DNA from: a virus
Lineage: Duplodnaviria > Heunggongvirae > Uroviricota > Caudoviricetes
IMG/VR virus record: IMGVR_UViG_2645727945_000010
Strand: one strand, 5' to 3'
Length of the DNA: 22,962 nt
The position numbers were made by a program, and so were the translations under genes. Positions 22,502 through 22,846 of the stretch are shown here, one piece after another (the first letter of the stretch is position 1; every line of letters begins with the position of its first letter). The notes under the pieces are model-generated. The model made no database searches. It was not told the DNA's origin and saw only the letters and a list, made by a program, of their open reading frames with translations.

Positions 22502-22846
22502 TCAGGCCAGCGGTGGAGTCTTCAGAGAACCAGTAATTATTCCCGGTAGTTTTCCTCTGTAGGTTATCAACACATCCTGCGCCTCTAAAATTACGGGGCA
22601 CTTTTCCGGCGACTGCTCATCCCCTTCACATAACCCGGCAGCAACATCCAGGAAGACCTGTCTGATGCTCCTTCTGGCTGCTGCCTCATAAAACTCCAGC
22701 GCGGCACCTTCAACACGGTCCAGCGAGATGTCCAGGTCAAAAATTTCACCGTCAAAGCGTTTTTTGTCCCGTAACGCTAAAGTTACCGTAACTTTATTCT
22801 CAAAATTGCGGATCCCTTTCACAATCAGTTCATAGTTTTGAGTCAT
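22502..22846 (-). CDS. Hypothetical 114-aa soluble protein inserted between holin and endolysin (possibly YdfR/DUF1327-like)
   Basis: ATG 4 nt after the holin stop. MTQNYELIVKGIRNFENKVTVTLALRDKKRFDGEIFDLDISL... has no transmembrane segment and no recognisable catalytic motif. Confidence 0.55.
   Translation of the reverse strand: MTQNYELIVKGIRNFENKVTVTLALRDKKRFDGEIFDLDISLDRVEGAALEFYEAAARRSIRQVFLDVAAGLCEGDEQSPEKCPVILEAQDVLITYRGKLPGIITGSLKTPPLA

Follow-up and report, generated by a model that had tools for sequence, protein, structure and literature searches.

A YdfR-family (DUF1327) gene between the holin and endolysin genes of an Escherichia coli lambdoid prophage, and its possible connection to RNase E

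The IMG/VR virus record IMGVR_UViG_2645727945_000010, a stretch of 22,962 nucleotides referred to here as the window, aligns from end to end at 94% identity with Escherichia coli prophages such as Sakai Sp10. The late region of this lambdoid E. coli prophage lies on the minus strand. Near its end, a gene of the YdfR family (DUF1327) is lodged between the holin gene S and the endolysin gene R. The holin is an S21/EssQ-type class II holin (pinholin type) of which only the 3' end is present (22851..22962, minus strand), the gene being cut by the window end; its last 36 codons (22851-22961) are 94% identical to residues 36-71 of EssQ from E. coli K-12. The TAA stop of S, at 22853-22851, is followed by four nucleotides (TTCA, 22850-22847) and then by the ATG at 22846 that opens the ydfR-type gene (22502..22846, minus strand), which appears in the open reading frame (ORF) listing as 114 codons and ends in TGA. 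A spacer of 50 nt (22452..22501, minus strand) leads from this stop to the start of R (21918..22451, minus strand), whose product of 177 amino acids belongs to the T4-lysozyme-like family (Pfam Phage_lysozyme, 5e-25). The N-terminus of R is Gly/Ala-rich and weakly hydrophobic. Together with an E35/D44/T50 spacing, read from the sequence, that is typical of signal-anchor-release (SAR) endolysins, it makes the window R resemble an enzyme of this type.

The window ORF is, with near certainty, a standard member of the YdfR/DUF1327 family. Its product matches Pfam PF07041 (DUF1327) with 144.4 bits (cut-off 25; E=1.2e-42), residues 1-112 being covered, and PHROG 406 with E=1.4e-66. The identical 114-residue sequence exists in NCBI as WP_052923995.1, 'YdfR family protein [Escherichia coli]'. 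All residues that are invariant in alignments of 26 to 34 DUF1327 members (V9, K10, N14, E46, G47, A48, L50, E51, F52, Y53, E54, and A57) are found in the window protein. An earlier note on this DNA had given the coordinates of the gene and its distances to S and R exactly (22502-22846, 4 nt from the holin stop and 50 nt to R), though not its strand; the two profile matches (144 bits and E=1e-66) do not bear out its remark that the protein has no recognisable motif. It had also named a match to a characterised family as something to look for, and here the outcome is divided: the family has a name, and a single interaction study from 2026 bears on its function.

The encoded protein is acidic (isoelectric point 5.0), and the highest Kyte-Doolittle mean over 19 residues is 0.69. 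A hydropathy scan of the whole protein found no hydrophobic segment, no hydrophobic N-terminus, and no signal sequence. The protein is soluble, as the earlier note had held, and is neither a membrane nor a periplasmic component of lysis. The transmembrane or signal-anchor segment that marks antiholins and membrane regulators such as lambda S107, S21-71, and T4 RI is absent at this hydropathy maximum, and the Pfam and PHROG searches gave no lysis-category match. Over codons 1-72, the ratio of nonsynonymous to synonymous divergence (dN/dS) is ∼0.2-0.4 in most pairwise comparisons and at most 0.68; the comparisons include alleles of the other major class, at which dS is saturated or nearly so. 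Because this part of the frame is under purifying selection, the 114-codon ORF is a genuine gene and not a chance reading frame. For codons 73-112, dN/dS ranges from 0.14 to 1.1, values that are based on few changes.

The position of the gene is constant. In the viral loci with a DUF1327 gene and enough upstream sequence, the ATG lies 4 nt after the stop of an S21-type holin in 75 of 75 cases, and the same 4-nt junction is seen in 8 of 8 genome loci. These counts and the order essQ-ydfR-rrrQ in the Qin prophage of K-12, together with the DUF1327 match itself, agree with the statement of the earlier note that ORFs of the DUF1327/YdfR type are found in this S-R gap. Its premise that a holin gene usually has the endolysin gene as its neighbour is likewise correct for this type of cassette, for example in phage 933W, where R follows S after 4 nt. 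The loci were surveyed in two sets drawn from IMG/VR, one selected by the DUF1327 N-domain and the other by the holin. Among the 73 loci of the holin-selected set that contain both S and R, the two genes are adjacent in 36 and a DUF1327 gene separates them in 27. The other 10 carry an insert with no DUF1327 gene at the holin junction, and most of these inserts are a gene of 185 or 213 codons (MNHEEMNQRFSRLENEIAELNKKL...) or its fragments; loci with this gene include L040:2720, L053:1615, L055:2720, L063, L069, and L082. Profile searches of its product gave no DUF1327 domain and no Pfam match. They did give matches to PHROG 1085 (C-terminal part), 36381, and 26186, and the gene corresponds to the part by which long DUF1327 proteins are extended at the C-terminus, namely their coiled-coil and C-terminal modules. 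Since S and R are adjacent in so many loci, and since 438 records of the phage collection have this type of holin against 101, about a quarter, with DUF1327, the ydfR-type gene is optional and not needed for lysis as such. When 933W is aligned with the window, the Shiga toxin (Stx) phage BP-4795, and Qin, the ydfR-type gene appears as an insertion between the stop of S and approximately codon 5 of R.

This insertion alters the translation signals of the cassette. A Shine-Dalgarno (SD) sequence, GGGGAGAG (22854..22861, minus strand), lies inside the last holin codons and pairs with the 3' end of 16S rRNA at a free energy (dG) of -8.5 kcal/mol. It serves whichever gene comes next, be it the ydfR-type gene of the window or R of 933W (-8.5 kcal/mol in both). 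With the ydfR-type gene in place, R is shifted 399 nt downstream, away from this strong signal. The SD:anti-SD energy of the displaced R start is 0.3 kcal/mol in the window and in BP-4795 and 1.1 kcal/mol for rrrQ, the R gene of Qin, and no SD for the R start at 22451 (minus strand) was found in the 50-nt spacer 22452-22501 (dG ∼0). The sequence ATAAATATC(C/T)ATGAAC, which lacks an SD, also precedes R in BP-4795 and Qin, and in Qin the start of R is coupled to ydfR through an ATGA overlap. An AU-rich hairpin in the spacer is not significant, since shuffled sequence folds just as well (z=0.64). The insertion could thus lower, in cis, the synthesis of endolysin relative to that of holin. A pattern-level consensus scan of the minus strand between S and R returned no promoter-like or terminator-like site, so that the promoter upstream and the terminator downstream by which a moron is recognised were not seen around the ydfR-type gene in this stretch. 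Its place in the operon, the SD within S, and the lack of promoter- or terminator-like sites of its own suggest that the gene is co-expressed with the lysis genes.

The protein is built from two parts with different histories. The conserved N-domain, or DUF1327 core, comprises codons 1-76 (22619..22846, minus strand) as delimited by alignments and a structural model, and contains the family-invariant patch E46-G47-A48-x-L50-E51-F52-Y53-E54. The variable C-terminal module (PEKCPVILEAQDVLITYRGKLPGIITGSLKTPPLA) comprises codons 77-114 and the stop (22502..22618, minus strand) and is modelled with low confidence as a beta-hairpin. In the AlphaFold2 model of the full protein, the N-terminal part is confident and the tail has a predicted local distance difference test (pLDDT) score below 50. 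When the N-domain was modelled alone with a more diverse alignment, it reached a pLDDT of 90.8 and a predicted template modelling score (pTM) of 0.77. The predicted fold consists of three antiparallel strands (residues 5-14, 18-27, and 34-43) and a long helix (50-74). Foldseek returned nothing at E<=1e-3, either with the full-protein model against the PDB or with the N-domain model against BFVD. A double-stranded RNA-binding domain was considered as a candidate fold and rejected: the first helix of the alpha-beta-beta-beta-alpha arrangement is absent and the scores are not significant. The N-domain also differs from such domains in being acidic overall and in the start of its helix, which reads EGAALEFYEAAARR instead of a lysine-rich motif.

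Across the family, the C-terminal part is exchangeable. Besides the hairpin module (residues 80-112, as in the window), there are the tail of K-12 YdfR and a variant of 104 amino acids, and C-terminal extension gives rise to longer forms of 176, 183, 268, 296, and 329 amino acids. At least five C-terminal architectures occur among alleles whose N-domains are 100% identical. The architecture of 114 or 116 amino acids is the commonest and has been kept intact in many lineages. The window gene itself is a recombinant of two lineages with a breakpoint near codon 70, because its N-domain is identical to that of BP-4795 ORF47 at only 39 of 72 positions whereas residues 73-114 agree at 37 of 42. Modules also occur fused, split, and reordered, as evidenced by locus L053, in which the 213-codon gene is followed by a separate, divergent ORF of 75 codons (L053:2284) that encodes DUF1327 alone (Pfam E=2e-8).

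The gene is widespread in one group of hosts. Megablast matched it in 4301 of 5426 complete E. coli genomes (∼79%), where it is routinely annotated as 'YdfR family protein'. The family itself is narrow, with 65 clusters (50% identity) at E<=1e-3 out of 1.84 billion representatives. Among species-representative genomes, DUF1327 is confined to E. coli, E. albertii, E. ruysiae, and Shigella, besides two metagenome-assembled genomes, one labelled Veillonella parvula (L007) and the other Bacillota (L009). Both of these carry holin, ydfR-type, and endolysin genes of E. coli type; the holin matches EssQ at 100% in L007 and 89% in L009, and the endolysin matches the window R at 89% and 91%, respectively. 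The probable source of these contigs is Escherichia DNA that contaminated the bins. All of the 101 DUF1327 records in the phage collection are Escherichia or Stx phages. YdfR/DUF1327 is an accessory late gene of Escherichia and Shigella lambdoid prophages that have an S21-type pinholin and a SAR endolysin. Database entries of the family include many that are truncated, frame-shifted, or fused. In the representative library, a repetitive protein of 3128 amino acids with 15 G2F-like stretches (P0158) gives six matches to DUF1327 residues 6-57 at 33% identity, and its apparent E=2e-10 is a single weak similarity multiplied by the repeats. The gene, the name of its family, and its position are already known and can be found in every PGAP-annotated E. 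coli genome, so that nothing about it is new as a sequence feature. The arrangement is very common, and the novelty implied by the earlier note was overstated.

The sole experimental lead on the function of YdfR is a study of the K-12 protein (RNA Biol 2026; PMC13232886). A two-hybrid screen baited with RNase G yielded residues 1-72 of K-12 YdfR, which interacted more strongly with RNase E constructs, and the full-length protein gave a two-hybrid signal with RNase E 1-597 (PMC13232886). Strep-tagged YdfR co-eluted Rne 1-598-FLAG from lysates, and its eluates contained ∼30-fold more DNase-resistant nucleic acid than controls (PMC13232886). Overproduction of K-12 YdfR was non-toxic and changed few transcripts (PMC13232886). 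The gene is silent in standard growth (PMC13232886), which would be expected of a gene in the late operon of a cryptic prophage. That the interaction withstands nuclease was demonstrated for YegJ, a different protein (PMC13232886), and the association of YdfR with RNase E could therefore be bridged by RNA. Two screen-level observations, both weak, also concern the K-12 gene. The Keio deletion of ydfR was a hit in the Paradis-Bleau screen for envelope leakiness, for which a polar effect or cassette read-through into the overlapping SAR endolysin gene rrrQ is a plausible and suspected cause. Overexpression of ydfR raised the minimal inhibitory concentration of streptomycin three-fold.

The N-domain of the window protein is identical to the RNase E/G-interacting fragment of K-12 YdfR at 59 of 72 residues and the EGAxLEFYE patch falls inside that fragment, which is why the RNase E lead may extend to the window protein. 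The gene, its family and position, the use of the SD, the optional status, the fold class, and the modular recombination come from the present analysis, whereas the two-hybrid signals and the co-purification with RNase E and with RNA were shown elsewhere, for the K-12 homologue only; that the window protein would act like K-12 YdfR, and that such action would matter to the phage, is inferred. In the favoured reading, YdfR would be a small, acidic, cytoplasmic protein of two modules that is produced alongside the lysis proteins, at a late stage of lytic growth, without being part of the lysis machinery itself. The N-domain of three strands and a helix would dock on host RNase E, at its catalytic N-terminal half, as well as on RNase G and/or RNA. 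Such docking would tune RNA turnover as infection ends, and YdfR would be a counterpart in principle, among temperate phages, of Srd from phage T4, and the exchangeable C-terminal modules would modify or retarget the activity of the N-domain. That a late-made cytoplasmic protein engages RNase E, RNase G, and/or RNA through its N-domain and thereby adjusts RNA turnover is a tentative proposal, plausible but well short of established. A broader version appears distinctly doubtful: here the S-R gap would be a hitherto undescribed modular hot spot (DUF1327 N-domain, hairpin, coiled coil, and C-terminal domain) that houses a late system for setting RNA decay before lysis through docking on RNase E/G. 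Most E. coli genomes would then contain what T4 has in Srd, in a form belonging to temperate phages.

A modulator of lysis timing is one rival reading. Such a protein might act in trans, either on the pinholin, at its highly charged C-terminal tail in the cytoplasm, or on the membrane-tethered SAR endolysin, at its cytoplasmic side; alternatively, the effect might be exerted in cis by the takeover of the SD, since an R gene deprived of its SD would lower the R:S ratio and reduce premature, holin-independent lysis by the SAR endolysin. The invariant S-R position with its fixed 4-nt junction fits this idea, as do the contrast between -8.5 kcal/mol for the gene after S and ∼0 for R wherever it is displaced (window, BP-4795, and Qin), and the coupling that in Qin ties the start of R to ydfR instead. 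Soluble holin antagonists encoded beside the holin do exist, LydB of phage P1 being an example. Conversely, S21-type holins encode their own antiholin through dual starts, the YdfR protein has neither a membrane segment nor a signal sequence, and phages of the 933W type lyse without a ydfR-type gene. A purely cis effect leaves the purifying selection on the protein unexplained, and S and R remain constant beside a freely varying C-terminal half. A role in lysis timing is accordingly judged unlikely, and a modulator of RNA decay is favoured over it.

The variability of the slot can also be read as that of a hot spot for accessory cargo directed at some other target, such as anti-defence, superinfection, or host takeover, in which case an arms race would drive the shuffling and the association with RNase E or RNA would be incidental. 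Close phages do differ in what the slot holds (nothing, DUF1327 genes for 104 to 329 amino acids, or the 185/213-codon gene), identical N-domains carry at least five C-terminal architectures, a recombination breakpoint lies near codon 70 of the window gene, and few taxa have the family. Inhibitors of host proteins are, moreover, typically small, acidic, and specific to phages. The PADLOC-DB defence profiles gave no family at E<=1 for the window protein, the 176- and 183-residue forms, or K-12 YdfR, and cargo of this kind is rated as improbable. Another possibility is that the multi-module proteins of 296-329 amino acids are the functional ones and that the 114-residue form is a truncated, inert remnant, decaying or neutral, which hitch-hikes with the holin gene. 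The existence of long forms with extra coiled-coil and C-terminal modules would be in keeping with decay, as would the numerous damaged entries in the databases, the low-confidence model of the window's C-terminal module, and the dN/dS of codons 73-112 with its few changes. Against it stand the selection that persists on the N-domain even between alleles with saturated dS, the prevalence of intact genes of 114 or 116 codons in many lineages, and the presence of the same 114-residue form in BP-4795, a functional Stx1 phage. That the gene is a mere remnant is therefore very unlikely.

The remaining value of the gene lies in the lead from the 2026 study: a very common late gene of E. coli prophages, present in ∼79% of complete genomes and in Stx1 and Stx2c phages, gains a connection to RNase E that can be tested. 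If the connection is true, the protein would tie the closing phase of the lambdoid lytic cycle to control over the decay of host RNA. Independently of the protein, the takeover of an SD that serves R in 933W may change the ratio of endolysin to holin, which could affect the timing of lysis and of toxin release in Stx phages.

Downstream of R, the lysis cassette of the window contains a second insertion. A gap of 270 nt precedes an Ant-like gene (21078..21647, minus strand), recognised by profile matches to the P22_AR_N and ORF11CD3 domains, which lies between R and the spanin gene Rz; the arrangement is the same in 933W and BP-4795. Rz occupies 20457..20924 (minus strand), and the gene for the Rz1 lipoprotein is embedded in it at 20519-20704 (minus strand). 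Between ant and Rz, a very hydrophobic ORF of 49 codons (20932-21081, minus strand) has counterparts annotated as hypothetical in BP-4795 (ORF50) and NCCP 13914; a Pfam search with it gave no match, and it could encode a small membrane protein of the lysis region.

Two further features lie elsewhere in the window. The portal ORF (13568-14932, minus strand; 454 amino acids; Pfam Phage_portal) overlaps by 4 nt with the next ORF (12510-13571, minus strand; 353 amino acids), which is in a different frame. In NCCP 13914, the counterpart of both is a single 'portal protein' of 859 amino acids whose second part is only 77% identical, and this may reflect a frameshift or a fusion annotation, either in the window or in NCCP 13914. 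Among the tail genes, on the opposite strand, the window carries the cargo gene sodC for a Cu/Zn superoxide dismutase (∼3200-3730, plus strand; Pfam Sod_Cu, 2e-31), which is likewise found in related O157-type prophages.

One close known relative of the window gene is ydfR of K-12 (b1555, P76160) in the cryptic prophage Qin. The two belong to the same family and occupy the same slot, essQ being followed after 4 nt by ydfR and then by rrrQ, with the same SD in the holin gene. K-12 YdfR differs in its length of 103 amino acids, in an unrelated C-terminal tail (KLSEKVESYLQHQYSFKIENPANKHERPHHKYL), and in a stop codon that overlaps the rrrQ start (ATGA) without a 50-nt spacer; it also resides in a defective prophage. 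ORF47 of BP-4795, like the YdfR-family genes of Stx1a and Stx2c phages, shares the architecture of the window in full: 114 amino acids, the 4-nt junction, the 50-nt spacer, R, ant, and Rz. Its N-domain, however, is of the other major allele class (MKKKYELVVKGINNYPDK...), at a dS of ∼1.7 from the window. Phage 933W, representing the Stx2a phages, resembles the window in the type of holin, the SD, the 4-nt junction, the family of R, and the ant gene between R and Rz, but S and R follow each other with no intervening gene and R sits in the position served by the SD. It thus provides a natural control that lacks ydfR.

Among phage proteins directed at RNA decay, Dip (gp37) of phage phiKZ, an inhibitor of the RNA degradosome, was tried as a relative and rejected, as its match does not rise above the background of generic three-strand-plus-helix motifs and there is no sequence similarity. 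The segments of RNase E bound by Dip are located in the C-terminal scaffold and not in the catalytic half. The Dip report describes the bound segments as RNA-binding (PMC4980113). Srd of T4, which stimulates the decay of host mRNA, is cited in the YdfR study as binding the N-terminal half of RNase E, and it is the only phage precedent cited there for a small protein acting on this half of the enzyme (PMC13232886). YdfR is likened to Srd by described function alone, and the two differ in their setting: a virulent phage encodes Srd among its early genes, and temperate phages carry ydfR among their late ones.
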